Source: Parcubacteria group bacterium
GTDB taxonomy: Bacteria > Patescibacteriota > Patescibacteriia > UBA9934 > GWF2-40-263
Direction: 5' to 3'
Length of the DNA stretch: 64,000 bases
NCBI GenBank assembly: GCA_013204395.1
Contig: JABMNZ010000025.1
Location: forward strand, 9,007 to 73,006
In this document: positions 621 to 58,221 of the stretch, in pieces
How positions within the stretch are numbered: position 1 is the first letter of the stretch
Layout of the letters: each line of letters begins with the position of its first letter
Notes under the pieces: model-generated
Told to the model about the DNA's origin: nothing
Seen by the model: only the letters and a program-made list of their open reading frames with translations
Database searches by the model: none
Translations under genes and position numbers: made by a program

Positions 621-1175
621 GTGAGCAACGAAAAAGAAAAATTTCTTTTGTTCCGTATCCGGGCTTTTAATGATGAGAATGCCTTTAATAAGGTAGTTGA
701 CCTCTATAAGGATAAGGTCACAAAGTTTCTCTCATTTAAACTCCCAACCAGTCATGATGCGGAAGATGCAGTTGCAGAGACGTGGATTCGTTTCTGGAGA
801 TATGCTCGAGGAACAAAAATAGAATCCATCTCAGGCATCATTTTCACCATTGCAAGAGGGGTCGTGTATGACTTCTATAAGCTGAAAGAGAAACGTAACG
901 AACAAGCTCTTCCAGCAAGTGATGAAGCGCCTGAGCTCAGTGACCCACTGCATGAGCAAATCATCAATCAGGTGGACGTAAGTATCCTTAAAGAGTTGAT
1001 CGTACAGTTAGACGAAGAGGATGCTCACATCATACTTATGCGTCATGTCCAGCAGATGAGGATTAAGGACATGGCAAAAGAGCTTGGACTATCTGAGAAT
1101 GCAGCTTCAGTGAAACTTCATAGAGCAATTAACAAATTCAGAACAAGTATCCTGGAAAAGTTTGGAGAATTATGA
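621..1175 (+). CDS. ECF-type RNA polymerase sigma-70 family factor
   Basis: GTG start. Region-2-like segment DAEDAVAETWIRFWRY and region-4 HTH MRIKDMAKELGLSENAASVKLHRAINKFR are present. 184 aa. Confidence 0.75.
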   Translation: MSNEKEKFLLFRIRAFNDENAFNKVVDLYKDKVTKFLSFKLPTSHDAEDAVAETWIRFWRYARGTKIESISGIIFTIARGVVYDFYKLKEKRNEQALPASDEAPELSDPLHEQIINQVDVSILKELIVQLDEEDAHIILMRHVQQMRIKDMAKELGLSENAASVKLHRAINKFRTSILEKFGEL

Positions 1176-2032
1176 ACGACCACGATATCCAAAATCTATT
1201 CGACAACATCTCTGAAAGTTCAGAGTTGTTTGTGTCAGTGGATGATGCACGGGTACGTGATTTAGTTTTTGAGAGAACAGGATTAGATGTATCAAAGGAA
1301 TCAGTGTCATACGGCATGCGCGACTATCTTGAGTATCACATGTGGAATTTTTCACATGCAATGCTCAGGCCAATGGCCGCAGCAGCAGCCGTATTTTTGT
1401 TTGCTATCACCGGTTGGATCACAATGGCTAACGCTTCACAGAACACACTGCCTGGCGACAACCTTTATCCAGTTAAGATTTCAGTAGAGAAGGCACAAAT
1501 GATTCTCGCATTCAGCTCTGATCAGCGGGCAGGCCTGCAGATGGAGTTCACCAGTCGAAGATTGGATGAAATGGTGGAAGTATCCGCACGCTTGCATGAA
1601 TCAGAGCCAGAAGCAGTTCGCTTGGCAGTAGATCGTTTCAAGAGCGAAGTTGCAATCATTCAAGAGGAACTAACAACAGAAGGTGCAAGCACGGAGCTTG
1701 CAAAAGCAGTCGGTCGCAGAGTAGAAGGATATTCCTCAGCTGTAACAGCTTCATCCGCGGAACTTTCTCAAGAGGTGATCGATGAGGTGGAAGAAGTTAT
1801 AGAGGAGACAAAGGAGCAGGCAGTACAAGTCATCATCACTTCGCATGAGGCTGATCAGAATGAAGATGATGCAAGAGAGCTGGCCATAACATTTGAAAAA
1901 GAACTAGCACTTGCACTGGAAGCTGGTGCTGACGAAGAAACACTTGCAACGGCACAGGCTCTGGCAGATGAAGGAGCCTACCGACGAGCCTTCCAAGTTC
2001 TAAAAGAGTTCAACCTATTAATCCAAGAATAA
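1172..2032 (+). CDS. putative anti-sigma factor (single-pass membrane protein)
   Basis: ATGA overlap with the sigma-gene stop suggests translational coupling. One TM helix (MAAAAAVFLFAITGWITMA) separates a ~65-aa cytoplasmic N-terminus from an acidic coiled-coil C-terminus. Function is inferred from context. Confidence 0.5.
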   Translation: MNDHDIQNLFDNISESSELFVSVDDARVRDLVFERTGLDVSKESVSYGMRDYLEYHMWNFSHAMLRPMAAAAAVFLFAITGWITMANASQNTLPGDNLYPVKISVEKAQMILAFSSDQRAGLQMEFTSRRLDEMVEVSARLHESEPEAVRLAVDRFKSEVAIIQEELTTEGASTELAKAVGRRVEGYSSAVTASSAELSQEVIDEVEEVIEETKEQAVQVIITSHEADQNEDDARELAITFEKELALALEAGADEETLATAQALADEGAYRRAFQVLKEFNLLIQE

Positions 2033-2266
2033 ACTGAGCCTTGAATCGGGCCAGGTGCCTCTCATTTAATGAGGGACCTCTTGCTCGCTCATCCATTTGT
2101 GATCACCTGGATGAGCATTATTCACTGATTCGCGAAGTAGCTATAAAAGGTCGAGACCCATGAGGTCGCTGCTCGTAAATTAATCAAAAGCCCTGAACCA
2201 GGGCTAAAAAGGTTCGCCTGCCCCACAAATAATACTGAGGGCGGGTAAAGTACCCAGATACAAAAT

Positions 2267-5200
2267 ATGACTAATTCTCTTCAACTGAAGAAAGCAATCA
2301 CAATGTTTATTGCTGCTGCAACAATTCTTGCTACAGCAGGTTTGACAGCATTTGTGCCTATGCAGGCTTCTGCCGCTTCTTATGGCGACCTGATCATGGG
2401 AGAGACTCTCTCAACTGTTTATTACTACGGTTCAGACGGTCAGCGATACTCATTCCCTAACGAGAAGACCTATTTCTCTTGGTACATGAGTTTTGACGAT
2501 GTTGTACAAGTTACCGATGAGGAGCTTGCTGACATCACACTGGCAGGAAACATTGTTTACCGCCCAGGTTCACGATGGATCAAAATTCAAAGCGACGAAA
2601 AGGTATACGCTGTTTCACCAAGTGGCTCAATCCATTGGATTGAGGACGAGGCTACAGCTGTTGGCCTTGCTGGAGACGCTTGGAACACAAACATCGATGA
2701 TGTTCCAGACGTATTCTTCGTCGACTTCACTGTTGGTGACTCTCTTACAGACGCAGCAGCCGGATATGAGGGCATGCTCTGGACAGACGGTACTAACAAC
2801 TACCTCGTACTCGACGGCATGGCTAGCATGGTCGACGACGGAGGTGCAAACGGTTACCAGGCAGGCTTCTGGCTTACTGGTACTGGATTTGACCCAGCTG
2901 GTCTAACAGCAGGTACAGCTGTAACTGCTGAGCTCGCTTCTCTTACAGACGCAGCACAAATGGTTACCACTGACACCGTTGTAGAAGCTGCAGATGTTTC
3001 AGTAAGCATCTCAGGTTCTCCATCAGCTTCAACCTTGATCGCTGGTCAGGGAATTGCAGATCTTCTGCACGTAACCCTTACAAACAACTCAGGTTCTTCA
3101 GTGAACTTGAACACATTGACCCTTACCCGCAACGGTGTGTCTTCTGACACAACATTGGCAAACATTTATCTATTTGATGGATACATTCGTTTGACTGACG
3201 CTGCAACCATCTCTGATGGAAAGGTAACTTTCAATGATAGCTCAGGTCTTTGGACCCTGGCTGCAGGTGCTTCTGCAACATTGGCTGTTCGTTCAGACAT
3301 TGCTGCAAGCACAAATGGTCAGACCGTTGGTCTTTCTGTTGTAGCTAACACTGACCTAACATTCTCAAGCGCTGGTGCTGCATCAGGTTCTTTCCCAATG
3401 ACTGGATCTGTTCACACAATCGCTACTTCCCCACCCACATTTGGAACTGCTGACTTCACAGGAAGCACAACCCCATCTGCTGCTTCAATTGATCCACAAG
3501 ATGACTACCGCGTATTTGAGCGCACCTTGTCTGTTGGTTCAAACGAGCTTGATCTATACGCAGCTCGCTTCCGAAACATTGGTTCCATTGACGCTGATGA
3601 TATCAGTGGATGGCAGCTTTATGTTGGAGGTGTGGTTCGTGGATCTACCGTTGCAGCTGAGGATGCAGATGGTTACATCTCATTCGACCTTTCAGCTGAT
3701 CCATTAGCACTTGCTACTGGTAATCACCAGGTTAAAGTACTTGCCGACGTTATTGGTGGGTCTGGACGAACCGTTACTGTTGGTCTACGTAATAGCGCCG
3801 ACTTCGTCGCTATGGACCAGGATTACGGACAGCCAGTGCTCTCAACTGTTGGGGCTTCTGCCTTCGCAGCAATGGACGCAGGTGCTCAGACCATTAATAG
3901 TGGCTCACTAACCTTCACCAAGTCTACTAACTCACCTTCTGGTGATGTTACTGAGACTGCTTCAGGTGTAACTCTTGGTAGCTGGTCTGCAAGAGCTTTT
4001 GGTGAGAACATGAAGGTTGAAAGCCTCCGCTTCGCTTTCACAGAAAGTGACGGACATGACGTAACCCTTCGAAATGGTGCTGTGTTCCTTAATGGTACAC
4101 AGGTTGGTTCCACAGCTGGCCTTGAGGCCAATGCTGGTGCTGGAACAGATTACACTTCATATACATTCGGATCTTCTTTCATTGTTGTGCCTGGTACTCC
4201 AGCTACTCTTGAAATAAGAGCTGATATCTATGACACAGATGGAACTGACAGTATCGAAGATGCAGATACAATCATTGCTGAGATTGTTGACATGAATACT
4301 GTTCTAAATGTTCAACAAGTTACATCTGGTGGTTACATCGACGCTCCAGACGGAGCCGCTGTAACGGCAAATACTCTTACAGTAACAGCAGCATCTCTCA
4401 GCGTTGCTAAGAATGGTGCGTATGCTGATCAAACAACTACAGAGCCAAGAAGTAACTATAAGATTGGTTCATGGTCTGTAACAGCTGGAACATCTGAAGG
4501 AGTTAACTTGACTGATATCAACGTTGATTTCGACGGAGCCTCTGATACATCAGAGCCAGCAGGTGGTGACATGTATAATCTTTACGTGATGTACGGTCCA
4601 TCAGCTAACATGACAACATCTAGCACAAAGGGAACAATCGCTGAGACTGCCAACTCATGGTCAATTAACTATGCATTGGAAGCCGGTGAAACCATTTATG
4701 TAGATGTTTATTTGGACATTGACGCAGCTATCACCACTGGTGAAATTATTCAAGCTGTTGTTGATGTGAATGGAACAAGCATGCTCTCTGGTTCATCTCC
4801 TACAACTAATGAAATCACTGGTCAGGCGATCACCACAGCTGCAGGTACATTCACTGAGTTCAATGATGACCACCCAGTTGACGCCATTGTGGCTGGCAAC
4901 CAGGAGGTTACAGCTGCAAAGTACCGATTCAGTGCAGCTAACGAGACATACACCATCACTGAAATGAAGACGTCTGTTGCAAGTGCTACAGCCGCTGGAT
5001 TAGTAAGTGCTGTTAGTTTGTATGACGGAAGCACATTGGTAGGTACAACCATCCTCGACGAGGACACCAACACTTCTGGAACGTTTACTGGTATGAGTAT
5101 CGAGGTTGCAGACAATGCATCTAAGACTCTTACATTGAAGTACACGTTGACTGAGGTTGGAGTAGGTGGAGGAACATCACAGACTGATGTTCAGAACACT

Positions 5201-5998
5201 CTTGAGTCTGTAAAATTCCGTGACAGTAATGGAACGGAGACAACAGAAGCTGATACTAACGCTGTTGACTCTAGTGGTACCGCTTCATGGACTAATGACA
5301 CAATTCTTGGAAACAACCTCTTCGTGTTCAGGTCCATCCCAACTGTTACCCACACCGACCTCACAAACTCAACACTTGTGAACGGTCAGGCAACAGATCT
5401 CTACAAGTTCACTGTCACTGCTGACGCTAACGGCGCTGTTGCTGTTAAGCAGTTCAAGCTAACAGCTTCTTGGAGCGATGGTGGTACTGCAGACACACTA
5501 GAAGTTGAGTCCTTGAAGCTTTACAAGAATGGATCTGACATCACTACTTCTGTAGTAATTCAGGACCAGGATGGAGCTTCTCTAGAGAGCACAAGTGGTT
5601 TGCTAGAGGCAGATTCTGACCTTGTTGTCACATGGGCATCTGAGGACACCGTTTCTGCTGGTGAGACAGTTACTTATACTGTTCGTGGAACTCCACAAGG
5701 CTTCCGCCTTACTGGAGACGACACCTCTGGTGACTCTATTAGCCTCTACTTGGCTCAGGACACCTCTTCAAACAGCACAAACGTCTACCTAAACGTTGGT
5801 GATACAACTGTCAGCGTTATCGAACTCTTCACATCTGCAGCTGCAGGAAATGCAACTACAAATGAGCCTGAGTTCATGTGGTCAGACAACAGTGCTTCAG
5901 CTCACTCTTCAACTGCTGGTTCAGCCTCAACAGGTGACTGGCACAACGGATACTTGGTTAAGAATCTTGACCTTGGATCTGAAACTTGGACTAAATAG
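2267..5998 (+). CDS. giant secreted Thr/Ser/Gly/Ala-rich surface protein with repeated beta/Ig-like domains (adhesin or S-layer-like)
   Basis: 1243-aa ORF with a signal peptide (IAAATILATAGLTAFVPMQASA) and beta-rich low-complexity composition. A ~105-aa N-terminal module (VYYYGSDGQRYSFPNEK...DAWNTNIDDVPD) is shared with the C-terminus of the next gene. Confidence 0.75.
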   Translation: MTNSLQLKKAITMFIAAATILATAGLTAFVPMQASAASYGDLIMGETLSTVYYYGSDGQRYSFPNEKTYFSWYMSFDDVVQVTDEELADITLAGNIVYRPGSRWIKIQSDEKVYAVSPSGSIHWIEDEATAVGLAGDAWNTNIDDVPDVFFVDFTVGDSLTDAAAGYEGMLWTDGTNNYLVLDGMASMVDDGGANGYQAGFWLTGTGFDPAGLTAGTAVTAELASLTDAAQMVTTDTVVEAADVSVSISGSPSASTLIAGQGIADLLHVTLTNNSGSSVNLNTLTLTRNGVSSDTTLANIYLFDGYIRLTDAATISDGKVTFNDSSGLWTLAAGASATLAVRSDIAASTNGQTVGLSVVANTDLTFSSAGAASGSFPMTGSVHTIATSPPTFGTADFTGSTTPSAASIDPQDDYRVFERTLSVGSNELDLYAARFRNIGSIDADDISGWQLYVGGVVRGSTVAAEDADGYISFDLSADPLALATGNHQVKVLADVIGGSGRTVTVGLRNSADFVAMDQDYGQPVLSTVGASAFAAMDAGAQTINSGSLTFTKSTNSPSGDVTETASGVTLGSWSARAFGENMKVESLRFAFTESDGHDVTLRNGAVFLNGTQVGSTAGLEANAGAGTDYTSYTFGSSFIVVPGTPATLEIRADIYDTDGTDSIEDADTIIAEIVDMNTVLNVQQVTSGGYIDAPDGAAVTANTLTVTAASLSVAKNGAYADQTTTEPRSNYKIGSWSVTAGTSEGVNLTDINVDFDGASDTSEPAGGDMYNLYVMYGPSANMTTSSTKGTIAETANSWSINYALEAGETIYVDVYLDIDAAITTGEIIQAVVDVNGTSMLSGSSPTTNEITGQAITTAAGTFTEFNDDHPVDAIVAGNQEVTAAKYRFSAANETYTITEMKTSVASATAAGLVSAVSLYDGSTLVGTTILDEDTNTSGTFTGMSIEVADNASKTLTLKYTLTEVGVGGGTSQTDVQNTLESVKFRDSNGTETTEADTNAVDSSGTASWTNDTILGNNLFVFRSIPTVTHTDLTNSTLVNGQATDLYKFTVTADANGAVAVKQFKLTASWSDGGTADTLEVESLKLYKNGSDITTSVVIQDQDGASLESTSGLLEADSDLVVTWASEDTVSAGETVTYTVRGTPQGFRLTGDDTSGDSISLYLAQDTSSNSTNVYLNVGDTTVSVIELFTSAAAGNATTNEPEFMWSDNSASAHSSTAGSASTGDWHNGYLVKNLDLGSETWTK

Positions 5999-6115
5999 TT
6001 CAACGCTCTAACAAGAGCATCTCTCCACCGATCCATACTTTTCACGAGCATCTGACTGAAAGCTTCGGCTAGACGTCTTGGCTCACCGAGAATGGGATCC
6101 TGGGGAAACAGTAAA

Positions 6116-6144
6116 GACCGTGCCTTCGGGCACGGTCTTCTGTT
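6116..6144 (+). terminator. intrinsic terminator-like hairpin downstream of the giant surface-protein gene
   Basis: GACCGTGCC-TTCG-GGCACGGTC perfect 9-bp stem followed by TTCTGTT. It lies inside the 5' extension of track ORF 6092, which argues that the true start of the next gene is ATG 6158. Confidence 0.45.
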
Positions 6145-6157
6145 ATACTTATCCCAT

Positions 6158-7639
6158 ATGAAACTTCATCACATTATTTTTGGTTCAATGTTCATGTTCG
6201 CCTTAGCTGTTCTTCCTGCACACGCGGAAGGTTCTTGGGTGCAAAAAGAATACGGAACAATCCAAGGGCTCCAAGGAATCGCTCAAATAGGGGACACTTA
6301 TTTTGCTGCTGGTAATACTGGAAACATTATTCGCTCAACGGACGATGGGGAGACATGGTCAGCTTTTGACCAGTCAGCAAGTGTCTATTGGCAAGACATG
6401 GGAGTATTTGGAAGTTATATCTGGGCCATTGGTGAAGGTGGTGCAATGCGCGAGTCTCAGGACTCGGGTAGCACATGGGCTGGTGTGACAACGGGAGTAA
6501 GTGAGGTGCTGTATGACATGGACACATCCACTCTATATGGATACCTCGTTGGATCAGGAGGAAGGATTATGGCATACCATACCGACGCCAGGCTTTGGCT
6601 TGCTGTAACTTCAGACACGACAAGTGTTTTATATCGCGTTCAAGACCGTGGGGACGCTACAGCTTGGGTCGTGGGTGGACAAGGGATTTTGCTTTATACC
6701 CTTGACGCCGGGCAGACATGGACAAACAAAGGAAACGTTGCAACAGATGATCTCTATGGGGTGTGGTTCACGTCTGCTACTGAGGGATATGTAGTTGGTC
6801 GCAATGGAACATTTCGTAAAACAATTGACGCTGGAGCGTCATGGACAACTATCGCTGTAAGTGGACTCTCAAGCCAGTCACTTTATGACATTCGTGGATC
6901 GGGAGATGATTTGGTGATCGCTGGGGATAAGATTTTAATTAGATCCGAAGATGCGGGAGTCACGTGGTCTGTTACAGATTACACAACTGAGAATTACACA
7001 TTCCGCAACGCTCTTTTTTCTGATGAGGGTCCTTGGGTGGTCGGAACAAATTACGACATGGCCTCTGTGATGCTCCGTTATGAGCAATCCGGCGGAGCCG
7101 GATCCGGCTCCGCCGGAGAAGAAGAAGTGGTCGAGGAGGAAGAGGAAACAGTTCTACTCGTTCCCGTTGAGGCTGAGCCGGGTACTTTGATTAAAAAAGT
7201 TTGTCTCGAAGGAGCAACGGCTACTGATCCTTGTCGTGCTGTTTACTATTACGCAACAGACGGAATGCGCCATGCATTTCCAAATGAAAAAGTTTTCTTT
7301 ACCTGGTTTGATGATTTTGATTCTGTAGTAGACGTAAGCGCAGACTTTCTCTCTGATATCCAACTTGGTTCAAACGTGACATATCATCCAGGGACGCGAA
7401 TGGTGAAGTTTCTATCAGTACCAACCGTTTACACAGTATCTATTGGTAGTGAGCTCAGATCGATTGCCAGCGAGGAGATCGCGGTAGGTATGTATGGCGA
7501 TGATTGGAATCAGCAGATCGATGACATCTCAGATGCCTTCTATGGCAACTATTCTTTCGGGGAGCCAATTGAGGCTATTGAGGACTACATACCAGAGCTG
7601 GCATCTGAAGCAGTATCAAGTTTGGATGACAATTTCTAA
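6158..7639 (+). CDS. secreted BNR/Asp-box repeat beta-propeller protein (Ycf48/sialidase-like fold) with C-terminal shared module
   Basis: Five SxDxGxTW motifs (STDDGETW, SQDSGSTW, TLDAGQTW, TIDAGASW, SEDAGVTW). Signal peptide MKLHHIIFGSMFMFALAVLPAHA from ATG 6158. An acidic linker (GEEEVVEEEEE) precedes a ~105-aa domain homologous to the N-terminus of 2267..5998. Confidence 0.7.
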   Translation: MKLHHIIFGSMFMFALAVLPAHAEGSWVQKEYGTIQGLQGIAQIGDTYFAAGNTGNIIRSTDDGETWSAFDQSASVYWQDMGVFGSYIWAIGEGGAMRESQDSGSTWAGVTTGVSEVLYDMDTSTLYGYLVGSGGRIMAYHTDARLWLAVTSDTTSVLYRVQDRGDATAWVVGGQGILLYTLDAGQTWTNKGNVATDDLYGVWFTSATEGYVVGRNGTFRKTIDAGASWTTIAVSGLSSQSLYDIRGSGDDLVIAGDKILIRSEDAGVTWSVTDYTTENYTFRNALFSDEGPWVVGTNYDMASVMLRYEQSGGAGSGSAGEEEVVEEEEETVLLVPVEAEPGTLIKKVCLEGATATDPCRAVYYYATDGMRHAFPNEKVFFTWFDDFDSVVDVSADFLSDIQLGSNVTYHPGTRMVKFLSVPTVYTVSIGSELRSIASEEIAVGMYGDDWNQQIDDISDAFYGNYSFGEPIEAIEDYIPELASEAVSSLDDNF

Positions 7640-7652
7640 GAAGACCGATACA

Positions 7653-9722
7653 ATGCCGCTACTGATTATGCGGCATTTATCTTTATTTACGGAAGCTAAG
7701 CTTCCGACAACAAAGGGTTTTTTTGCGGGGCTAGTGATAGCTTCGCTCGTTTTAACTACTTTTCCTGCGCAGGCTCAGTCAGGTGATCGTTTTGACGATG
7801 AGTTGTGGTACCTCGATCAAATCTCTTTAGATCAGGCTGACATAAAGACTGGGCTCTCACCGACTGTCGTTGCTGTGCTTGATGCTGGGTTTGATTTTGA
7901 TCACGAAGATCTTGATGGTCAGTACTGGGTTAATACAGACGAGACGGCCGGTGATCAGACTGATAATGATGGTAATGGGTATGAGGATGATGTGATGGGA
8001 TGGGATTTTGTTGATAACGATCCAGATCCGTCCCCAGACACAACACCACCTATAAGGGATTCGGTTGTGTCTCACGGAACCGTTATTGCTGGAATAATTG
8101 TTGCTAAGCAGGGGAATGGTTTTGGTATTCGTGGCATTGCGCCTGAGGCTAAGATCATGCCACTACGTGTATTGAATCGCGACGGAGGTGGCTCGACAAT
8201 TGATGTCAGGCGTGCTGTCCGCTACGCAGTTGAAAACGGTGCGGACGTGATTAATCTCAGCATAAACTTTACTACCTCAGATCAGAGGCTTCGTGAAACA
8301 CTTGAGTGGGCACACGACCAAGGGGTGATTATTGTTGGGGCAATTGGCAACGGCAATACTGACACAGATCTCACACCAGTCTATCCAGCCTGCTATGACG
8401 GCGAGATTGGAAAGAATATTGTTATTGGTGTTGGCGCAAGTGATCGTTTTGATAAAAAAGCTGAGTTTTCAAATTTCGGCAGCAAGTGTGTAGACCTTGT
8501 CGCCCCCGGCGTGGATATTTTTGCAACCGTGTATCACGATCCGTCACAACTCTTACTAAGTACTGCTTACTCGTCGCCGTGGGAAGGAACATCTTTAGCA
8601 GCTCCTATCGTGTCCGGAGCTGCAGCACTTTTACGCGGCATGTATCCGTCCATTACCCCTGACCAGGTTCGCAATGTTCTTAAACTCTCTGTTGATCCAA
8701 TAAAAGAAACATCTCTTGAGGCGCGAATACGTCTTGGTGCTGGTCGGTTGAATGTTGCAAAGGCACTTGAGGTAGCAAAGATTGTTGTTGCTGGCCCACG
8801 TACTTCTGTGGCAAAGCAGGATATTTCCACCACAAGCTTTGCGATTGCTCAGGCCCATGGGTCAAGTCCTCAGGTTCGTCGGTATGATGGCAGGGGGAAT
8901 GTGATCGCAGATTTTTATGCATACAACAAAGCATTCACAGGAGGGGTGCGTGTAGCTATGGGGGATGTTGATGGTGATGGTCAACTTGAAATAGTGACGG
9001 GCGCTGGACCAGGTGGGGGGCCACAGGTTCGAGTGTTTGATTTAGATGGTCGACCAGAAAGACAATTTTTTGCCTTCGAGGAAGGAGGACGTGGCGGAAT
9101 CTATGTGGCTACAGGCGACACAAATGGAGATGGTATTGATGAGATAATTGTAACCGCGGACCGTGACAGCACTGGACAGGTTAGGATCTTTAATCAGCAC
9201 GGTCACTTAAAGGGTTCGTTTTTCCCGCTTGGAAGAACAGATGCAGCGCTGGCGGTGAGTGTTGCTAATCTAGACGATGATCCTGAAGAGGAATTGCTTA
9301 TCTCTACGATGGCCGAGTCTGATGGAACGGTTTGGGTTTATGATGGTACGGGGGTTTATGTCCGTTCGTTTGTTGCTCTTAATGGTGAAGTGGACAGCTT
9401 AACTACTACGACAGCGGATTTGGATGGTGATGGTGTTTCGGAGATACTCGTTGCATCTGGCCCGGGTCACACCCCAAGGGTTTCCGTGTATAATCAACAA
9501 GGAGTGTTGTTGGATACTTTACTTGCGTTCGCATCGAATTTTATGGGAGGAGTATCTGTAACCGTTGGGGACATTGATAACAATGGCCGTAAAGAAGTTT
9601 ACACAGCTCCACTCACAGCTGGTGGGCCACAGGTTCGAATTTTTAATCAGACGTTAGATCTCATTGGAGGTTTTTTCACTTTTGACCAAGGGAATCGTTA
9701 TGGAACATTTGTTTCGATGTAG
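7653..9722 (+). CDS. subtilisin-like S8 serine peptidase with C-terminal FG-GAP repeat beta-propeller
   Basis: Catalytic triad contexts VAVLDAGFDFDHEDL (Asp), HGTVIAGII (His) and GTSLAAPIVSGAAALL (Ser). Four or more GDVDGDG..EIV / GGPQVRVFD FG-GAP-type repeats. Start is ATG 7653 or 7668 (signal peptide MRHLSLFTEAKLPTTKGFFAGLVIASLVLTTFPAQA). The track ORF begins at 7494 and overlaps the upstream gene. Confidence 0.8.
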   Translation: MPLLIMRHLSLFTEAKLPTTKGFFAGLVIASLVLTTFPAQAQSGDRFDDELWYLDQISLDQADIKTGLSPTVVAVLDAGFDFDHEDLDGQYWVNTDETAGDQTDNDGNGYEDDVMGWDFVDNDPDPSPDTTPPIRDSVVSHGTVIAGIIVAKQGNGFGIRGIAPEAKIMPLRVLNRDGGGSTIDVRRAVRYAVENGADVINLSINFTTSDQRLRETLEWAHDQGVIIVGAIGNGNTDTDLTPVYPACYDGEIGKNIVIGVGASDRFDKKAEFSNFGSKCVDLVAPGVDIFATVYHDPSQLLLSTAYSSPWEGTSLAAPIVSGAAALLRGMYPSITPDQVRNVLKLSVDPIKETSLEARIRLGAGRLNVAKALEVAKIVVAGPRTSVAKQDISTTSFAIAQAHGSSPQVRRYDGRGNVIADFYAYNKAFTGGVRVAMGDVDGDGQLEIVTGAGPGGGPQVRVFDLDGRPERQFFAFEEGGRGGIYVATGDTNGDGIDEIIVTADRDSTGQVRIFNQHGHLKGSFFPLGRTDAALAVSVANLDDDPEEELLISTMAESDGTVWVYDGTGVYVRSFVALNGEVDSLTTTTADLDGDGVSEILVASGPGHTPRVSVYNQQGVLLDTLLAFASNFMGGVSVTVGDIDNNGRKEVYTAPLTAGGPQVRIFNQTLDLIGGFFTFDQGNRYGTFVSM
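7690..7706. repeat. perfect 17-bp palindrome CGGAAGCTAAGCTTCCG (copy 1 of 3), embedded in-frame in the signal-peptide n-region of the S8 protease
   Basis: An exact 17-mer with a central AAGCTT. The identical core recurs at 19200-19216 and 57287-57303. Three exact copies of a 17-mer in 64 kb is far above chance. Confidence 0.8.
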
Positions 9723-11802
9723 TCCGTTCTTTTACAAGGCAAAACAGGGGGCCATTTTTTGTTTGCTCTTTATTATTGCTTTGCCGGTTTACGCGCTGAC
9801 ACCGAACGATGATTATTATTCCGAGCAGTGGTACATGGAGACCATGGGAGCGCAGATTGCATGGGACGAAGAGACTGGTGATGGTTCTGTTGTTGTTGCT
9901 GTTTTAGATACTGGAATTGATTTGGACCACCCCGATCTTGAGGATAATATTTGGGTGAACTTAGGTGAGATCGCGGGCGATGGTATTGATAATGACAATA
10001 ACGGTTATATAGATGACGTGAACGGTTACGACTTTGTCGATGAAGACGGAACTCCGGTTCCAGATCGCTTTGGGGGGTTTGATGTAGACGCTGTTTCTCA
10101 TGGGACTGTTATAGCCGGCATCGTTGGTGCAGTTGGGAATAACGATGAGGGGATGGCGGGTATCAACTGGAATGTAGAACTCATGTCTGTAAGAATTTTG
10201 GATAGCAATGGTGTGGGTGATTCAAATCTCGCAACTAATGGTGTTGATTATGCCGTAGATAATGGGGCAGATGTTATTAACTTAAGTTTCACTGGGTTTG
10301 ACCACGATGAGCGATTACGTCTTGCCCTACAACGGGCTTTTGAAGCTGGGGTAGTAGTTGTGGCGGCTGTTGGGAACTCTGATAACGGAGGGGTAAATAT
10401 TGATAACAGACCAATCTTTCCTGCGTGTTATGGAGAACGAGCGGATGAAGATTGGATTTTAGGTGTGGCGGCAACGGACGCAAATGATGTGAAAGCAGAT
10501 TTCTCAAACTACGGAGCAACCTGTACGGATATATCTGCTCCCGGTGAGGATATTTTTGCCACGATCTATCAAGACGACGATTGGCCAGGACTTGAGGAGG
10601 GATTTTATCAATCTGGTTGGTCAGGGACATCTATGGCGTCCCCAATGGTGGCAGGCGCTGCGGCTTTGTTAAAGTCTCACTATCACTCTCTGACACCAAG
10701 CGATATCAAAAGTGCTTTGAGATTATCTGTGGATCCTGTGAAGGCAACCGGTGATGCTGTTGGGAAAATGGGATCCGGGAGATTAAACATTTCTAAAGCA
10801 CTTATCCTTGCCGCTTCTTATGCAGATGAGGGCGATGGGGATGATGATGAAGTAACCACAATGACCGAAACAACGAGTTCAAATTCGAGCTACAGAATCG
10901 CAGTTGCGCCAGAAAGTGGTGGTCCACCAACTGTGAGAGTGTTTACAAATTCTGGAGACGAAATAGTCGCGAGCTTCAATGCCTATGACGAATCTTTTAC
11001 TGGTGGAGTTCGACTGGCTATGGGAGATGTTGATGGCGATGGGGAGGAGGAGATTGTGACCGTGCCAGGTTCAGGTGGTCCCCATGTTCGCATATTTGAT
11101 CTAGACGGAAATCTTGAAAGTGACTTTTTTGCATTTTCGACATCCATGAGATCTGGGTTGTATGTGGCAACGGGGGATATTGATGGAGATGGACTTGAAG
11201 AGATTGTTGTGAGTACTGACGAGGGAGGTGGCGCACTTGTCAAAATTTTTGATAACAACGGTGATCAAATCGGCTCTACTATTGAGCCGTTTGAAGATGT
11301 GCCAGCGCCGCGCAGTGTGCGTGTGGCCATGGGAGATGTAGATGGTGATGGCGAGGACGAGGTGATCACAACATTGGGTGATGGTCATGAGCCATTGGTG
11401 CGTGTGCACAAAGCTGACGGAACATTTCAAAGCGAGTTTCTTGCCTATGCACAGACCTATGACAAGGGGGTCTTTGTGGCTTCAGGTGATCTAGACGGCG
11501 ATGGTGATGATGAGATTGTGACAGGTACAGATAATGGTGGTGGTCCACAGGTGCAGATTTATGATGGCGAGGGAGGGTGGCTTGGAACGTTCTTTGCCTA
11601 TGATGATCAGTTCCGTGGAGGGGTTCGTTTGTCTGTAGGGAATCTTTCTAAGTGGCCAGGTGCATCAATTATTACTGCCGCAGGACCAGGGGGAGGCCCA
11701 CATATCCGAGTTTATAATGGATACGCCTCTTTAATAGGAACGTTCTTCTCAGATGACGAAGGTGATAGAGGGGGGGTTAACTCTGGAGCCTGGAGTCTCT
11801 AA
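9700..11802 (+). CDS. second subtilisin-like S8 peptidase with FG-GAP repeats (tandem paralog)
   Basis: VAVLDTGIDLDHPDL, HGTVIAGIV, GTSMASPMVAGAAALL; seven or more FG-GAP-like repeats (AMGDVDGDGEEEIV, ATGDIDGDGLEEIV...). ATG 9700 gives the signal-anchor MEHLFRCSPFFYKAKQGAIFCLLFIIALPVYA. The track start 9664 is a TTG. Confidence 0.8.
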   Translation: MEHLFRCSPFFYKAKQGAIFCLLFIIALPVYALTPNDDYYSEQWYMETMGAQIAWDEETGDGSVVVAVLDTGIDLDHPDLEDNIWVNLGEIAGDGIDNDNNGYIDDVNGYDFVDEDGTPVPDRFGGFDVDAVSHGTVIAGIVGAVGNNDEGMAGINWNVELMSVRILDSNGVGDSNLATNGVDYAVDNGADVINLSFTGFDHDERLRLALQRAFEAGVVVVAAVGNSDNGGVNIDNRPIFPACYGERADEDWILGVAATDANDVKADFSNYGATCTDISAPGEDIFATIYQDDDWPGLEEGFYQSGWSGTSMASPMVAGAAALLKSHYHSLTPSDIKSALRLSVDPVKATGDAVGKMGSGRLNISKALILAASYADEGDGDDDEVTTMTETTSSNSSYRIAVAPESGGPPTVRVFTNSGDEIVASFNAYDESFTGGVRLAMGDVDGDGEEEIVTVPGSGGPHVRIFDLDGNLESDFFAFSTSMRSGLYVATGDIDGDGLEEIVVSTDEGGGALVKIFDNNGDQIGSTIEPFEDVPAPRSVRVAMGDVDGDGEDEVITTLGDGHEPLVRVHKADGTFQSEFLAYAQTYDKGVFVASGDLDGDGDDEIVTGTDNGGGPQVQIYDGEGGWLGTFFAYDDQFRGGVRLSVGNLSKWPGASIITAAGPGGGPHIRVYNGYASLIGTFFSDDEGDRGGVNSGAWSL

Positions 11803-11822: not shown

Positions 11823-12839
11823 ATGTCTCAAGAACTAAAGTTTACAAACAAAAATATCCTTGTGACCGGCGGTGCTGGTTTCATTGGCTCGCATTTATGT
11901 GAGCAATTGCTTCGCGATGATCATAGGGTGGTTTGCATAGATAACCTTTCAACGGGCACAGCAAGTAACATTAACGCACTTTTACAGAATCAGAACTTCA
12001 GATTTATTCGTTTGGATATCAACGAGCCATTTGATTTGGAGAGTCACGCAGAGCTCGCTACTTTCAAGTTACCTTTTCAAGGAATCCAAGAAATTTATCA
12101 TTTAGCTTGTCCAACATCGATTAAAAACTTTGACCAGTTTAAAGTTCAAACACTACTTTCAAATTCCTTGGGGAATTATCACGTGCTTGAAATTGCGAAG
12201 AAGTACCGTGCGCGCGTCATGCTGGCTTCTAGTTCCGTAGTGTACGGACAAAGAGCGGAAGGAAGTGGCATGGTTGAGGAGTCTGAAATGGGTTTGGTAA
12301 ATCAACTTTCTCAGAGAGCTTGTTATGACGAGGGTAAGAGATTCTCGGAAACCATGTTTGAGACTTATCGTCAGGTGCACGGTTTGGATATTCGTATAGC
12401 AAGAATTTTTCGCACGTATGGACCGCGCATGCCACTGTTTGATGGACAGCTCATTCCCGATTTTATCTTGAATGCCCTAGATGGAAATGACCTTGTCATG
12501 TACGGAGGAAAAGATTTCAGCACATCTCTCATGTTCATTTCAGATTTGATTGACGGCCTTGCTCGTATCATGGACGCCCCGGAATACACGGGTCCCGTGA
12601 ACATTGGAAGTGATGTTGATTTGAATCTTGTGGATGTGGCGCAGCAAATTATTGAGATGACCAGCTCATCTTCTAAAATCGTTGATGGAGATAATTTTGC
12701 CTTTCTTTCAGAGTTGGCTTTGCCAAGAATTACAGCGATTAAGGACCTTGGCTGGTTCCCCCTTGTGCGTTTGCCAGACGGTCTACGTCGCACCATTGAA
12801 TACATGAAGGCAAATAAGTTGCTTCTGACAAATGTATGA
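11823..12839 (+). CDS. NAD-dependent sugar-nucleotide dehydratase/decarboxylase, UDP-glucuronate decarboxylase (UXS/ArnA-DH)-like
   Basis: ILVTGGAGFIGSHLCEQLL Rossmann motif, IYHLACPTS and YDEGKRFSETM (YxxxK) signatures resembling the UXS family. Confidence 0.65.
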   Translation: MSQELKFTNKNILVTGGAGFIGSHLCEQLLRDDHRVVCIDNLSTGTASNINALLQNQNFRFIRLDINEPFDLESHAELATFKLPFQGIQEIYHLACPTSIKNFDQFKVQTLLSNSLGNYHVLEIAKKYRARVMLASSSVVYGQRAEGSGMVEESEMGLVNQLSQRACYDEGKRFSETMFETYRQVHGLDIRIARIFRTYGPRMPLFDGQLIPDFILNALDGNDLVMYGGKDFSTSLMFISDLIDGLARIMDAPEYTGPVNIGSDVDLNLVDVAQQIIEMTSSSSKIVDGDNFAFLSELALPRITAIKDLGWFPLVRLPDGLRRTIEYMKANKLLLTNV

Positions 12840-13501
12840 AGGTGATTGCTCTTATCCCAGCGTACAACGAAGAAACAACACTTGCGGTTGTTTTGGAAAA
12901 AACAGCTTCGTTTGTCGATTTGATGTTAGTTGTAGATGATGGCTCTACAGATAGAACAAGTGAGATCGCCTTAAGTCATGGAGCGACGGTTGTCAGCCAT
13001 GTGATTAACCGCGGCCTGGGTGCAGCCATTGGTACTGGATTCGCCGCGGCAATGATGCTTAAAGCGGATGCCGTCATAACCTTGGATGCAGATGGGCAGC
13101 ATGACCCATCGGAGATCCCATTATTTGTTGAAGCCATTAATGATGGAGCTGACGTCGTCATTGGTTCAAGAATGCTTGGAGGTACGGGTATGCCATGGTA
13201 TCGACAGGTAGCGAACCGTCTTGGAAATCTAGTGACCTTTCTTTTGTTTGGCGCTCTTGTCACAGATAGTCAATCTGGTTTCCGTGCGTTCACCGCCTAT
13301 GCCATTAGGCAGATCGAAATCAAGACTAATCGAATGGAGGTTTCTTCAGAATTGATCGCGGAGTCTCGTCGGCACAAGCTTCATCTTGTAGAGGTTCCCA
13401 TAAAAGCGATTTATACGGAGTATTCTCTCTCAAAGGGACAAAGCTTCCTTGTGGGTATCAAGACACTTATCAAACTTGTCTTGCGCCGTATCAGTCAATA
13501 A
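12836..13501 (+). CDS. GT2 polyprenyl-phosphate glycosyltransferase (DPM1/GtrB/ArnC-like catalytic domain)
   Basis: IPAYNEETTL...VVDDGSTDRT...LDADGQHDPSEI (DxD) pattern. ATGA-coupled to the upstream gene. 221 aa. Confidence 0.7.
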   Translation: MKVIALIPAYNEETTLAVVLEKTASFVDLMLVVDDGSTDRTSEIALSHGATVVSHVINRGLGAAIGTGFAAAMMLKADAVITLDADGQHDPSEIPLFVEAINDGADVVIGSRMLGGTGMPWYRQVANRLGNLVTFLLFGALVTDSQSGFRAFTAYAIRQIEIKTNRMEVSSELIAESRRHKLHLVEVPIKAIYTEYSLSKGQSFLVGIKTLIKLVLRRISQ

Positions 13502-13508
13502 TTGATCT

Positions 13509-13841
13509 ATGACCGTAATCCAGATTCTGATTGTCGTATTTGCGCTTTTTGCCATCTCTCGAACAGTCTGGCAATTTAAGAGGGGGTCACTCACCATTGC
13601 TTGGCTTCTTTTTTGGATGATCTTTTGGTTGGTTGCCGCAACGGTTGCTGTGCTGCCGCAGACCACAGACACGGTTGCAAGATTTGTGGGTGTTGGCCGT
13701 GGGGCTGACGCAGTGATCTATTTTTCATTGGTAGCATTGTTTTATCTGGTGTTCCGCACATACGTGAAGATCGAAAAAACAGAAAACGAAATCACAAAGC
13801 TTGTTCGCAAGCTTTCCCTAGATGAACTAGATGACAAATAG
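13509..13841 (+). CDS. small 3-TM membrane protein (DUF2304-like; candidate flippase-type partner of the GT2)
   Basis: 110 aa with three hydrophobic helices. The position immediately after a GtrB-like GT2 mirrors GtrA/ArnEF arrangements. Function is inferred. Confidence 0.45.
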   Translation: MTVIQILIVVFALFAISRTVWQFKRGSLTIAWLLFWMIFWLVAATVAVLPQTTDTVARFVGVGRGADAVIYFSLVALFYLVFRTYVKIEKTENEITKLVRKLSLDELDDK

Positions 13842-14883
13842 TATGCACCCGAAAGTTTCCATTATCTATCTGGCTTACAACACTCATAAATACCTCGACG
13901 AGGTATTTTCGTCTTTACGGCAGTTGAACTACCCAAAGGACAGGCTTGAGATTATTGCGGTTGATAATGATTCAAAAGATGAGAGCGCCGCGTGGCTGCA
14001 CAAGCAAGATGGAATCACGTTTTTTCCAAGTGAGACGAATCTCGGGTTTGCGGGTGGAAACAATCTTGGGATCACCCATGCCCTGCTAAATGGAGCAGAC
14101 TACGTTTTTCTTCTTAATGGGGACGCAAAGTTAGATCCCGATGCCATCATGGGGGCCGTGAAGGTGGCTGAGGCAGATCCTTCGATTGGTTCGGTCCAGT
14201 CCAGGATTATGCTTTGGGAAAAGCCTGAGATTGTAAATGCGACTGGTGGCATGGTGCACTTTTTAGGATTCGGATTTGTAAAAGACAACGGGCTTCCTTG
14301 GAAAGGATCCACACAACCAAGTGAGATTGCTTATGCTTCAGGGGCTGCTGTCCTGTATCGGGCATCCGTTTTGCAAAAAGTTGGTTTACTTGATCCATTC
14401 TTTTTCATGTATCACGAAGATCTGGAACTTGGTTGGAGGATTCGTCTAGCTGGAGGGAAAAATATGTTAGCTCCACAATCTGTCGCCTATCATGATTATG
14501 AGTTCTCTCGATCCATTCAAAAGTTCTACTGGATGGAACGAGCTCGAGTTCTTGTTCATTTTTCACATTTGACATGGAGGTCACTTTTAATTCTCGCCCC
14601 AGCAATGGCGTTATCAGAACTCGGACTACTTGTTTTTGCCATCAAAGGTGGTTGGCTCAAAGAAAAATTTCTTGTCTACGCTTCTTTACTCTCACCTAAA
14701 TCGTGGAGATATATTTCACGCAAGCGAAAAGAGAGCACTGCTATTCGATCGGTGAGCGATAGAGAAATTGCTTCACTTTGGACGGGTCGCATAGAACATC
14801 AAGACACAAGTAGCCCAATTGTGGATCGCGTTATCAATCCTGTTATGTCGATCGCTTGGTCGGTTATGAAAAAATTTATCTAA
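13831..14883 (+). CDS. glycosyltransferase family 2
   Basis: VSIIYLAYNTHKYLDEVFSSL...IIAVDNDSKDES, typical of GT2 rhamnosyl/glucosyltransferases. An alternative ATG lies at 13843. Confidence 0.7.
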   Translation: MTNSMHPKVSIIYLAYNTHKYLDEVFSSLRQLNYPKDRLEIIAVDNDSKDESAAWLHKQDGITFFPSETNLGFAGGNNLGITHALLNGADYVFLLNGDAKLDPDAIMGAVKVAEADPSIGSVQSRIMLWEKPEIVNATGGMVHFLGFGFVKDNGLPWKGSTQPSEIAYASGAAVLYRASVLQKVGLLDPFFFMYHEDLELGWRIRLAGGKNMLAPQSVAYHDYEFSRSIQKFYWMERARVLVHFSHLTWRSLLILAPAMALSELGLLVFAIKGGWLKEKFLVYASLLSPKSWRYISRKRKESTAIRSVSDREIASLWTGRIEHQDTSSPIVDRVINPVMSIAWSVMKKFI

Positions 14884-16044
14884 ATGGACAAGCAAATAAA
14901 AATTGCGCACGTTGTTTCAACTTATCCTCCTTACCGAGGTGGAATGGGGAGGGTTGCTTTTGAATATGTGGAGCGACAAAGAGCAAGAGGTTATAGCGCG
15001 CATGTGTTTACCATTGCTGGTGAAAAAGTTGAGGACGACCCCCGTTATGTCCATAGGGTCCCGTCGATAATGCATATCGGTAATGCTGGCGTACTGCCGT
15101 CACTGTTTAAGCGACTTTCTGGTTTTGATCTTGTTCATCTTCATTATCCATTTTACGGTGGCGCTGAGCCCACTATTGTCCGTAAGGCTCTTCGTCAGAA
15201 CCAAGGTCTGGTTATGACCTACCACATGGATAACTATGCCCCTGGACTTAAGGGGGCAATCTTTTCTGCTCACAGGCGTCTTTTGTTTCCATGGCTCATG
15301 AATCGTGTTGATAGAATCTTGGTGAGCTCTTTAGACTATGCAAAACATTCAGCCCTTGCGGAACTTAATCTAGAAGACCGTATCGAAGAGCATCCGTTTG
15401 GTGTTGAGTTGGATCGATTCAAACCAGGTGAGGAAACACATCTACGGTCAGATTTGAATCTTGATTCTGACATTCCTGTCCTTTTATTTGTTGGGGGTCT
15501 TGATGCGGCCCATCATTTCAAGGGACTCACGGTGCTATTTGAAGCTTTGGAAAAGTTAGTGGCACAGTCTTGGCATTTGGTTGTGGTTGGAGAGGGTCCA
15601 CTTCGGGAGACATACAAAGCAAACGCGGACGCTGCTGACCTTTCACAAAGAGTGACCTTTGCTGGTAATGTTTCAGATGAGGATCTTCCTCGTTACTATC
15701 GCCTAGCTGATATGCACTTGTTTCCTTCGACGGGCAGGGGAGAGGCATTTGGACTTGTGGCTGCAGAAGCGGCGGCTAGCGGAACTCCATCCATTGCTTC
15801 GAATCTTCCTGGTGTTCGCACGGTTGTGAGAGATGGGGACACAGGGCTCCTCGTAACCCCAAACGATGTAGAGGAGCTGTCTAAGGGCATTTTAACGCTT
15901 CTGGAACAGCCTGAGGTGAGGAGAAGGTTTGGATTATCGGCTCGCATTCATGCTGAGCAACATTACGGTTGGGAACCCATTATGGATCGTCTTGAGGAAA
16001 CTTATGAATCCGTCTTAGGACAACAATCAACGCGCGCCTACTAA
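14884..16044 (+). CDS. glycosyltransferase family 4 (GT-B)
   Basis: C-terminal EAFGLVAAEAAASGTPSIASNLPGVRTVVRDGDTGLLV (EX7E-type motif). Confidence 0.75.
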   Translation: MDKQIKIAHVVSTYPPYRGGMGRVAFEYVERQRARGYSAHVFTIAGEKVEDDPRYVHRVPSIMHIGNAGVLPSLFKRLSGFDLVHLHYPFYGGAEPTIVRKALRQNQGLVMTYHMDNYAPGLKGAIFSAHRRLLFPWLMNRVDRILVSSLDYAKHSALAELNLEDRIEEHPFGVELDRFKPGEETHLRSDLNLDSDIPVLLFVGGLDAAHHFKGLTVLFEALEKLVAQSWHLVVVGEGPLRETYKANADAADLSQRVTFAGNVSDEDLPRYYRLADMHLFPSTGRGEAFGLVAAEAAASGTPSIASNLPGVRTVVRDGDTGLLVTPNDVEELSKGILTLLEQPEVRRRFGLSARIHAEQHYGWEPIMDRLEETYESVLGQQSTRAY

Positions 16045-16045
16045 T

Positions 16046-17251: not shown

Positions 17252-17255
17252 GAAA

Positions 17256-17279
17256 AACCGAGCGAACGCTCGGTTTTTG
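17256..17279 (+). terminator. rho-independent terminator of the glycosyltransferase operon
   Basis: ACCGAGCG-AA-CGCTCGGT hairpin followed by TTTTT. Confidence 0.6.
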
Positions 17280-17281
17280 GA

Positions 17282-17340: not shown

Positions 17341-17342
17341 AT

Positions 17343-58220: not shown

Positions 58221-58221
58221 C

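Follow-up and report, generated by a model that had tools for sequence, protein, structure and literature searches.

Two adjacent secreted proteins, encoded in a 64,000-nucleotide stretch of DNA (the window, analysed here as a whole) from a Parcubacteria group bacterium, an ultra-small, uncultured member of Candidatus Uhrbacteria of groundwater type, have in common a domain of about 125-150 residues, and sequence comparison confirms that the two copies are homologous. The domain represents a large unnamed family, which in our searches is almost confined to Patescibacteria (CPR), chiefly Candidatus Uhrbacteria. It is probably a new family of non-covalent cell-envelope anchoring domains that is used like SLH; that it binds, to which ligand, and that the giant protein of this locus belongs to the S-layer is what we infer. 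A large fraction of bacterial diversity falls within the CPR/Patescibacteria, nearly all of which are uncultured and which live in attachment to other cells. Because of this attached lifestyle the envelope is central to their biology, and it is poorly annotated.

Two copies of the module in neighbouring genes

The genes and other features that are referred to below, all on the forward (+) strand, are as follows.

621..1175, +, ECF-type sigma factor (Pfam Sigma70_r2 and r4_2), conserved upstream in at least 15 genomes
1172..2032, +, DUF5667 membrane protein in an anti-sigma-like position (Pfam DUF5667, 2.5e-10), conserved in the locus
2267..5998, +, giant secreted protein of 1243 aa, a candidate for the S-layer protein or a major surface protein, with an N-terminal module
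2267..2374, +, predicted Sec signal peptide, aa 1-36, read from the sequence, cleavage after A-S-A
2378..2761, +, module copy 1, aa 38-165, of the N-terminal type, which lacks the Cys-Cys loop (BLAST core nt 2402..2746)
6107..6144, +, terminator-like hairpin, GC-rich, UUCG loop followed by a U-rich tract, directly 3' of the giant gene
6158..7639, +, secreted Ycf48-like/BNR beta-propeller protein of 493 aa (Pfam PSII_BNR 1.6e-15, BNR 4.9e-07)
7181..7636, +, module copy 2, aa 342-493, C-terminal type (BLAST core nt 7226..7570)
7626..9722, +, first S8 subtilase with FG-GAP repeats (Pfam; start as in the public gene call), conserved downstream
9664..11802, +, second S8 subtilase with FG-GAP repeats (Pfam)

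When the first 260 aa of ORF 2267..5998 were compared with the last 186 aa of ORF 6158..7639 by BLASTP, aa 46-160 of the giant protein and aa 357-471 of the propeller protein formed one ungapped alignment with 49/115 identities (43%), 62% positives and an E-value of 5e-34. The first-pass annotation, which had described a module of about 105 aa common to both proteins at 40-45% identity, was right in both its coordinates and its estimate. A tblastn search with each module against the six frames of the window revealed no third copy (next best E 0.26). Half-unit HMMs match the giant protein at aa 49-103 and 111-163. According to the family alignment and the structural model, the unit starts about 8-15 residues upstream of the BLAST core, at a conserved 'G-x-L-I-K' strand, and the C-terminal-type module extends to the last residue of the protein. 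Copy 2, which follows an acidic Glu-rich linker at the C-terminus of the propeller protein, carries a conserved Cys...Asp-Pro-Cys loop and a C-terminal helix tail. In the numbering of copy 2, Arg31, Lys77 and Arg94 (basic) and Trp43 and Trp110 (aromatic) are invariant. The same annotation had called the two proteins co-secreted, which is reasonable because both start with a hydrophobic segment followed by an A-x-A motif. The signal peptide of the giant protein, recognised by eye, consists of KK, a 21-residue hydrophobic stretch and PMQASA/AS, where the slash marks the predicted cleavage.

Search for a known family

Neither sequence nor profile searches link the module to an established domain. 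A Pfam-A hmmscan with both isolated modules at E<=10 returned only NUMOD4 at E 0.11, which is noise; there was no NCBIfam match, the PHROGs scan gave no usable match, and a profile search of all PDB sequences yielded 0 matches at E<=10. SLH (PF00395), whose profile covers three repeats of about 55 aa with a TRAE-type motif, was not matched at E<=10 by either isolated module or either full protein, nor was T7SS_ESX1_EccB matched by the modules or the full proteins, and the profiles of LysM, SH3b, CW_binding_1/2, PG_binding, SPOR and the copper-amine-oxidase N-domain gave no match in Pfam (E<=10) or NCBIfam. SLH, LysM, SH3b and copper-amine-oxidase N-domain identities are therefore out at the level of sequence profiles. 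The earlier failure to assign the module to SLH, LysM or SH3b agrees with these Pfam, NCBIfam and PDB sequence searches, which assign nothing, and no well-known domain of any kind emerged from the Pfam and NCBIfam profiles. Our literature search found no earlier description of the module in Patescibacteria or Uhrbacteria, which is not proof of absence.

A tandem of two units with an EccB- and endolysin-like fold

In the AF2 model of copy 2 (pLDDT 95.4, pTM 0.85), each half has a beta-beta-alpha-beta-alpha-beta pattern, which accordingly occurs twice, and the two halves can be aligned in register (hhalign, local P 0.0054). As modelled, the module is a compact tandem of two units of about 55 residues, an internal duplication with four strands and two helices in each unit. 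Judged by the pattern of strands and helices, the fold of the modelled unit is the same as that of the EccB repeats and of PlyCB-type endolysin cell-wall-binding domains (CBDs). The best nine Foldseek matches in the PDB are all EccB, with weak scores; endolysin cell-wall-binding domains are also among the nearest solved folds, likewise with weak scores, and the matches in a viral fold library include CHAP, lysozyme and amidase proteins. The EccB repeats have four strands and two helices and resemble PlyCB (PMC4769845). Cell-wall binding by the LysIME-EF1 CBD has been established by experiment (PMC7098653), and the ligand of PlyCB is wall polyrhamnose (bioRxiv 10.1101/2021.03.19.436156).

The module nonetheless differs from all of these. 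EccB, with its R1-R4 repeats, is the membrane-anchored core of a secretion machine (mycobacterial type VII secretion) and has a central domain, unlike the module. PlyCB and the CBDs of the Enterococcus phage endolysins LysIME-EF1 and Lys170 are rings of separate subunits, whereas the module joins two units in one chain, and they show no sequence similarity to it that is detectable in PDB and PHROGs searches. They are phage-borne, while the module is cellular and occurs in no lysin that we found; finally, PlyCB/LysIME-EF1-type CBDs are basic and the module is acidic, with a mean net charge of about -7.

The likeness in fold raises the question of whether the module might be a docking or oligomerisation unit, comparable to dockerin-cohesin pairs. 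Copies on different proteins would then associate mutually or with the lattice of the giant protein, and accessory enzymes would hang on the surface layer and not on the wall. PlyCB and the LysIME-EF1 CBD, the closest characterised folds, function as ring oligomers of 8 and 4 copies, respectively (PMC4769845, PMC7098653), the module joins two units of this kind covalently in tandem, and the EccB repeats operate inside a protein assembly, as the Foldseek matches to ESX complexes indicate. Moreover, module-bearing genes tend to be neighbours, with two or three per locus in 34 of 78 sequences. However, the giant protein has the module too, so that something else would have to hold such an assembly on the cell, and the high conservation of surface-type residues across thousands of module proteins whose partners are unrelated is in keeping with a single shared ligand. 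Nor does one role exclude the other: PlyCB both oligomerises and binds the wall. We consider a docking role unlikely.

Family size, distribution and partners

In an exhaustive profile search, 4,886 protein clusters (at 50% identity) match the module profile at E<=1e-3, and 2,456 of them reach E<=1e-30. Source labels, where informative, are Patescibacteria or Candidatus Uhrbacteria, except for three stray labels on short contigs. Among GTDB species genomes, tblastn confirmed the module in 415 stretches, a list that is biased to the C-terminal type and to Uhrbacteria by its query of 10 close sequences; informative titles among the listed loci are again Uhrbacteria or Patescibacteria. Several genomes have multiple paralogues, for example four loci in isolate BH28. 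As to viruses, a scan of IMG/VR viral contigs produced no confirmed relative, and none of 50,697 phage genomes was matched by tblastn; hence no phage lysin with the module was found.

The module lies at the C-terminus in 128 of 181 proteins, at the N-terminus in 41, at both ends in 8 and internally in 4, and is thus terminal in 177. An N-terminal hydrophobic signal is present in 195 of 220 full-length proteins. The commonest architecture is propeller plus module (31/75 representatives). Other fusion partners include Ig-like domains, GH5, GH10, S8 proteases, DUF3048 and phosphodiester glycosidase, as well as cyclophilin, SH3, cupredoxin, invasin-like and chitobiase-type domains. With 4,886 clusters, a nearly always terminal position and very diverse extracellular partners, the module deserves to be called portable, as the initial reading of the DNA had it. 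The partners are extracellular enzymes, Ig-like domains and propellers and not one substrate class, which speaks for anchoring.

These data also bear on two further readings. In some members the module accompanies GH5, GH10, a chitobiase-type domain or phosphodiester glycosidase, as might be expected of a carbohydrate-binding module (CBM) by which secreted enzymes are directed to polysaccharide or detritus in the environment. Most partners, though, are not glycosidases (propellers, Ig-like domains, S8 proteases, cyclophilin, cupredoxin and the 1243-aa non-enzymatic protein), and hmmscan at E<=10 detected no similarity of the modules to any Pfam CBM. A simple CBM role was rejected on account of this non-glycosidase majority, and substrate targeting in general seems to us very unlikely. 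In protein P0149 the module is placed between GH5 and GH10 domains, an arrangement compatible with either a CBM or an anchor. The second reading is a secretion or sorting tag read by an export or attachment machine, similar to the T9SS C-terminal domain or sortase signals. The terminal position of the module and its occurrence in exported proteins are consistent with such a tag, yet the module may stand at either end, sometimes at both or internally; when N-terminal, it comes after a normal Sec signal peptide; it is a well-folded double domain of 125-150 residues in the AF2 model; and beyond the sigma/DUF5667 pair and the proteases no dedicated machinery gene is conserved nearby. The use of either terminus led us to reject a sorting signal, which we regard as extremely improbable.

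The giant protein

The mature giant protein would have about 1207 aa and 125 kDa. It contains zero cysteines, is 45% Thr, Ala, Ser and Gly, has a pI at or below 4.05 (the lower limit of the routine used), and gave no Pfam, NCBIfam or PDB sequence match; a BLAST comparison with itself found no internal repeats. Its AF2 model, built from 5 sequences, is poor (pLDDT 48), with only beta strands after about aa 262. Orthologues of 1210-1315 aa are found at the same locus in at least 15 Uhrbacteria genomes. Identity among the orthologues is 71-89% in the module and 41-84% in the remainder (just 41-65% in 12 of the 15 orthologues), and 40 of the 66 invariant columns of the alignment fall in the first 157 residues. 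Read from these sequences, a conserved module with a variable remainder is what one would see in a protein with a constant anchor and an outer part that varies. The protein thus unites S-layer-type features: it is large, acidic, Cys-free and rich in Thr/Ser/Ala, with a conserved putative anchor and a variable remainder, and a strong hairpin follows its gene. Its size, its composition and the way in which its conservation is distributed suggest that it is probably an S-layer subunit. The cells of groundwater CPR bacteria bear an S-layer and lack an outer membrane (bioRxiv 10.1101/2020.05.14.094862); a lattice of 3.8 and 10 nm has been reported.

The conservation pattern also helps to judge whether the module could instead be an adhesin domain of an episymbiont, directed at glycans or the wall of a host or partner cell and not at its own wall. 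CPR bacteria are mostly host-attached episymbionts (bioRxiv 10.1101/2020.05.14.094862), phage CBDs that share the fold target the walls of foreign cells, and the invasin-like domains, Ig-like domains and hydrolases among the partners could act on a host. A host-binding tip, however, is expected to be distal and to vary fast, but no part of the giant protein is better conserved than the module, which adjoins the signal peptide, and the presence of the module on cyclophilin, cupredoxin and proteases is easier to reconcile with retention on the producer cell. An adhesin is in our estimation a rather improbable explanation.

A probable cell-envelope anchor

Anchoring is the reading that we prefer. 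The cell-wall or partner binding suggested in the initial reading of the DNA has indirect support from the nearest solved folds, EccB repeats and endolysin CBDs with weak scores, and from a usage pattern known for SLH-type anchors. After Sec export, the module would attach, without a covalent bond, to a polymer in the wall of the producing cell, be it peptidoglycan or a secondary polysaccharide linked to the wall, and would thereby hold the protein fused to it at the cell surface. At this locus it would anchor the 125-kDa acidic giant protein via the N-terminus and the propeller protein via the C-terminus; in sister genomes, an S8 protease would be anchored too.

In usage, the counterparts of the module are SLH, CWB2 and LysM anchors. 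The likeness to SLH, which is found in Bacillota and other bacteria, lies in the pattern of a terminal non-covalent anchor common to an S-layer protein and varied exo-enzymes of one genome (for the module, binding is what we infer), in the fact that the anchor is better conserved than the remainder of the S-layer protein, and in the envelope glycan genes that lie next to the locus. The two differ in that there is no sequence relationship (no Pfam SLH match at E<=10) and in the number of units, three in SLH against two of about 55 aa in the module. The SLH fold, a three-helix-based trimeric wheel, is also unlike that of the module.

Several observations count against anchoring. A classical wall-binding domain would often occur in peptidoglycan hydrolases and phage lysins. 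Among about 270 architectures there was no peptidoglycan hydrolase fusion, and no phage lysin had the module. The EccB repeats themselves are without demonstrated wall binding, and the LysIME-EF1 CBD uses a basic patch, as opposed to the acidic module. In addition, some members have an SH3_3 or SH3_4 domain in another part of the protein and may thus rely on more than the module for anchoring.

If anchoring is true, the module would join the few known wall-anchoring modules as a new sequence family, allow the surface proteome of these bacteria, and their probable S-layer protein, to be predicted from sequence, and serve as a binding tag to label or capture uncultured Uhrbacteria cells. It would also connect the EccB repeat fold, which is poorly understood, with a wider class of envelope-binding units. 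It is tempting to go further and speculate that Uhrbacteria and related Patescibacteria generally use the module, as other bacteria use SLH, to anchor proteins non-covalently at their surface, with the giant protein as the S-layer subunit of groundwater CPR cells and, as the ligand, a wall-linked, possibly rhamnose-containing polysaccharide made by the glycosyltransferase/rml genes that follow. We put this broader proposal forward tentatively, as one that could well turn out otherwise; if it holds, a list of module proteins would give the surface proteome straight from sequence.

Locus organisation and gene boundaries

The gene order sigma factor, DUF5667 protein, giant protein, propeller protein and two S8 proteases is kept in at least 15 Uhrbacteria genomes. 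Some 10 other Uhrbacteria have, at the position of the second S8 protease, a shorter S8 protease that ends in the module (loci L010, L023, L025, L028, L030, L031, L036, L043, L048 and L050). Glycosyltransferase and rml genes come after the locus. Within the window, the Rfam scan was empty, there was no tRNA, and the promoter scan did not rise above background. The hairpin at 6107..6144 has a minimum free energy of -25.7 kcal/mol (z -4.4), which none of 200 shuffles equals. A longer propeller ORF starting at 6092 was rejected, since it overlaps this terminator-like hairpin; the start of the propeller gene is thus most likely ATG 6158, as had been assumed from the outset. A public contig has an identical 493-aa gene call for the propeller protein.

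A module shared by two neighbouring putative surface proteins

Two neighbouring open reading frames of the window encode a giant protein and a BNR propeller protein that share one module, located at the N-terminus of the former and at the C-terminus of the latter.

Features of the module locus
621..1175, plus strand: ECF-type sigma factor, directly upstream and paired with the DUF5667 gene
1172..2032, plus strand: DUF5667 membrane protein in the anti-sigma factor position, directly upstream of the giant gene
2033..2266, plus strand: untranslated leader of ~235 nt before the giant gene
2267..5998, plus strand: giant protein, 1243 aa, read from the window
6107..6144, plus strand: strong GC-rich hairpin (-25.7 kcal/mol, z -4.4) with UUCG loop and U-rich tail, just 3' of the giant gene
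6158..7639, plus strand: propeller protein, 493 aa, read from the window

When the first 260 residues of the giant protein were compared by BLASTP with the last 186 of the propeller protein, a single gapless alignment resulted, with 49/115 identities (43%), 62% positives and an E-value of 5e-34. The aligned core covers giant residues 46-160 (nt 2402..2746) and propeller residues 357-471 (nt 7226..7570), so the first-pass annotation was right about the position, length and identity of the shared segment. These are the only copies in the window, the next best tblastn match of either module having an E-value of 0.26. A 50-kb contig from an assembly of run SRR28106091 also encodes an identical propeller protein.

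The earlier failure to assign the segment to a known domain likewise held: at E<=10 the isolated modules matched no Pfam family, NUMOD4 (E 0.11) being noise. There was no match in NCBIfam, only noise in PHROGs, and a 26-sequence module profile had zero matches at E<=10 among all PDB chain sequences. The giant protein has no Pfam-A match, and the sole Pfam-A assignment in its neighbour is the Ycf48-like/BNR propeller. Database names of module homologues follow the partner domains ('hypothetical', 'Ig-like domain-containing', 'YCF48-related'), and no account of the module emerged from searches of the full-text literature. One preprint on S-layer prediction in prokaryotes at large has candidates from Patescibacteria (Nealsonbacteria) and speaks of 'many novel' anchoring domains; Uhrbacteria and PlyCB-like domains are both absent from its main text. 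Judging from our comparisons, the module would add a new sequence family to a functional class already known, that of terminal surface-anchoring domains, rather than represent a new principle.

Predicted fold

The AlphaFold2 model of the propeller protein module, based on a 26-sequence alignment, has pLDDT 95.4 and pTM 0.85, and the same secondary structure pattern occurs in it twice. The first unit comprises strands 22-25 and 30-33, helix 37-43, strand 50-53, helix 55-60 and strand 62-66; the second, strands 84-88 and 92-96, helix 99-106 (plus 110-113), strand 114-117, helix 119-124 and a short strand. Profile-profile comparison places the two halves in register across 48 columns (local P 0.0054), a weak indication of internal duplication by itself, yet one in line with the model.

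The nine best Foldseek matches in the PDB are all EccB chains (E 0.04-0.9). In a viral structure library, uncharacterised small actinophage proteins rank first (E 6e-6), ahead of weaker matches to CHAP, lysozyme and amidase proteins. EccB repeats consist of four strands and two helices and are PlyCB-like (PMC4769845); the LysIME-EF1 domain, a tetramer, attaches to cell walls (PMC7098653). The modelled likeness to EccB, PlyCB and LysIME-EF1 is consistent but weak, a resemblance at the level of fold rather than demonstrated homology.

We propose that the module is an anchor built from two PlyCB/EccB-like units, and non-covalent attachment to the cell envelope is the best-supported explanation and probably the correct one. 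Against it count the acidity of the module, the finding of no peptidoglycan hydrolase or phage lysin that carries it, and the weak fold scores. A docking or oligomerisation unit is unlikely as an alternative; such a role would be compatible with wall binding, as in PlyCB.

Family size, position and partners

Word-indexed searches returned 9 and 23 close relatives, the labelled ones all from Patescibacteria or Uhrbacteria metagenome bins. With the module profile, an exhaustive HMMER search of 1.84 billion cluster representatives returned 4,886 proteins at E<=1e-3; of these, 4,096 pass a cut-off of E<=1e-10 and 2,456 one of E<=1e-30. Scanning one genome per GTDB species yielded 415 tblastn-confirmed stretches, a set that is biased because the patterns were drawn solely from the C-terminal module type. 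Titles of the 77 retained loci read Candidatus Uhrbacteria or Patescibacteria group, or are uninformative (e.g. 'MAG: bacterium'). Many are titled 'uncultured Gammaproteobacteria', which we take as a placeholder because several such contigs bear the same Uhrbacteria-type locus. Stray labels are Methylomirabilis (one short contig) and Baltobacteraceae (one module protein). Among the matches listed, the closest genome is Uhrbacteria isolate BH28, with a module 83% identical, and the window accordingly derives from a relative of Uhrbacteria. The family is large and appears nearly confined to an uncultured radiation, its fold link to known wall-binding units being remote.

The portability suggested by the first-pass annotation is evident, as the module joins many different domains at either terminus. 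Of 181 proteins, 128 carry it C-terminally, 41 N-terminally and 8 at both ends; 4 have an internal copy. A signal-peptide-type hydrophobic N-terminal segment is found in 195 of 220 apparently full-length proteins, and most of those lacking it look like truncated gene calls. A sorting tag is highly improbable. Two subtypes can be told apart: a Cys-x9-Cys loop ahead of the first repeat is conserved in the C-terminal type and missing from the N-terminal type, which directly follows the signal peptide.

Partners in 75 representatives include the Ycf48-like BNR propeller (31), Big_13 (13), Sortilin-Vps10 (10), Big_1 (7) and Invasin_D3 (6), besides Big_7, PKD, GH5 cellulase, GH10, S8 subtilase, DUF3048 and others. 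Other searches added phosphodiester glycosidase PF09992 (many), cyclophilin, SH3_3/SH3_4 and cupredoxin. Beside such partners, an adhesin for a host surface seems quite unlikely and a substrate-targeting CBM very unlikely. In its manner of use the module, read as an envelope anchor, is like SLH, CWB2 and LysM.

A conserved locus

The gene order ECF sigma factor, DUF5667 protein, giant protein, propeller protein, two S8 proteases and epimerase is kept in at least 15 Uhrbacteria genomes, with the module always N-terminal in the giant orthologue and always C-terminal in the propeller protein. The sigma factor/DUF5667 pair lies upstream of the giant gene in all of these, which suggests dedicated regulation of the surface locus. 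The hairpin looks like a terminator, which would make the giant gene largely a transcription unit by itself and place the start of the propeller gene at 6158. The alternative start at 6092 was rejected, the hairpin being against it.

The second S8 protease (~530 aa) ends in the module in about 10 related genomes (L010, L023, L025, L028, L030, L031, L036, L043, L048 and L050 of our scan), whereas its window counterpart (9664..11802, 712 aa) ends in FG-GAP repeats. Therefore, a C-terminal domain was swapped within one conserved locus, a direct example of module shuffling.

Envelope-glycan genes follow on the 3' side, at 11823..19145, 22556..26266, 27632..29950 and 32842..33924. They comprise genes for an epimerase/dehydratase, several glycosyltransferases (two GT2 and two GT4), an ABC exporter, a CDP-alcohol phosphatidyltransferase and a nucleotidyltransferase, RmlB- and RmlD-type genes and two large ORFs without Pfam match. 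Since PlyCB has the polyrhamnose backbone of streptococcal wall polysaccharide as its ligand (bioRxiv 10.1101/2021.03.19.436156), a rhamnose-containing wall polymer may serve as a lead for the module ligand, and as no more than a lead.

The giant protein

The mature giant protein (~1207 aa, 125 kDa) has zero cysteine, 45% Thr+Ala+Ser+Gly and a pI of at most 4.05, the floor of the calculation. Identity among close orthologues is 71-89% in the module and 41-84% in the rest of the protein; for orthologues at 25% identity the corresponding ranges are 45-54% and 19-34%. Of 66 invariant alignment columns, 40 fall within residues 1-157. SLH-anchored S-layer proteins combine a conserved anchor and a variable body with similar composition, and the giant protein is like them in both respects. 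Groundwater CPR cells imaged by cryo-TEM have an S-layer but lack an outer membrane (bioRxiv 10.1101/2020.05.14.094862). It is tempting to speculate that the giant protein is an S-layer protein and the module an SLH equivalent, a joint reading that we hold only tentatively; if true, the finding would be of greater interest.

The AlphaFold2 model of the whole protein is poor (pLDDT 48, five sequences), indicating only an all-beta region beyond residue 262. Residues 166-262 (window 2762..3050), between the module and the beta-rich body, are Gly/Ala/Thr-rich with very low model confidence. Their start, G-M-L-W-T-D-G-T-N-N-Y-L-V-L-D-G, bears a faint likeness to the first hairpin of a module unit; half-unit HMMs detected nothing in this stretch. 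The last ~20 residues, G-D-W-H-N-G-Y-L-V-K-N-L-D-L-G-S-E-T-W-T-K (window 5920..5995), are conserved among close orthologues, and W-x-N-G-Y or W-x-N-G-R occurs near the C-terminus in three of four fully read orthologues at 25% identity.

Other features of the window

A minus-strand patch at ~58000..62900 has ~60% G+C, compared with ~45% elsewhere, and may be acquired DNA. It holds contiguous ORFs without Pfam match (62141..62854, 60995..62125 and 59807..60964) and an adjoining ORF (59147..59803) whose C-terminal end, read by eye only, resembles an OmpA-C-type motif. Beside these ORFs lie a further one without Pfam match (58222..58998) and the gene of an ABC ATPase (57396..58220). The high G+C probably gives rise to a spurious 751-aa ORF on the plus strand of the patch. 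PEGA domains are frequent in surface-layer-related proteins; one is encoded by 33960..35282 (minus strand), adjoined by a secreted S41 (Ctp-type) protease (35341..36645).
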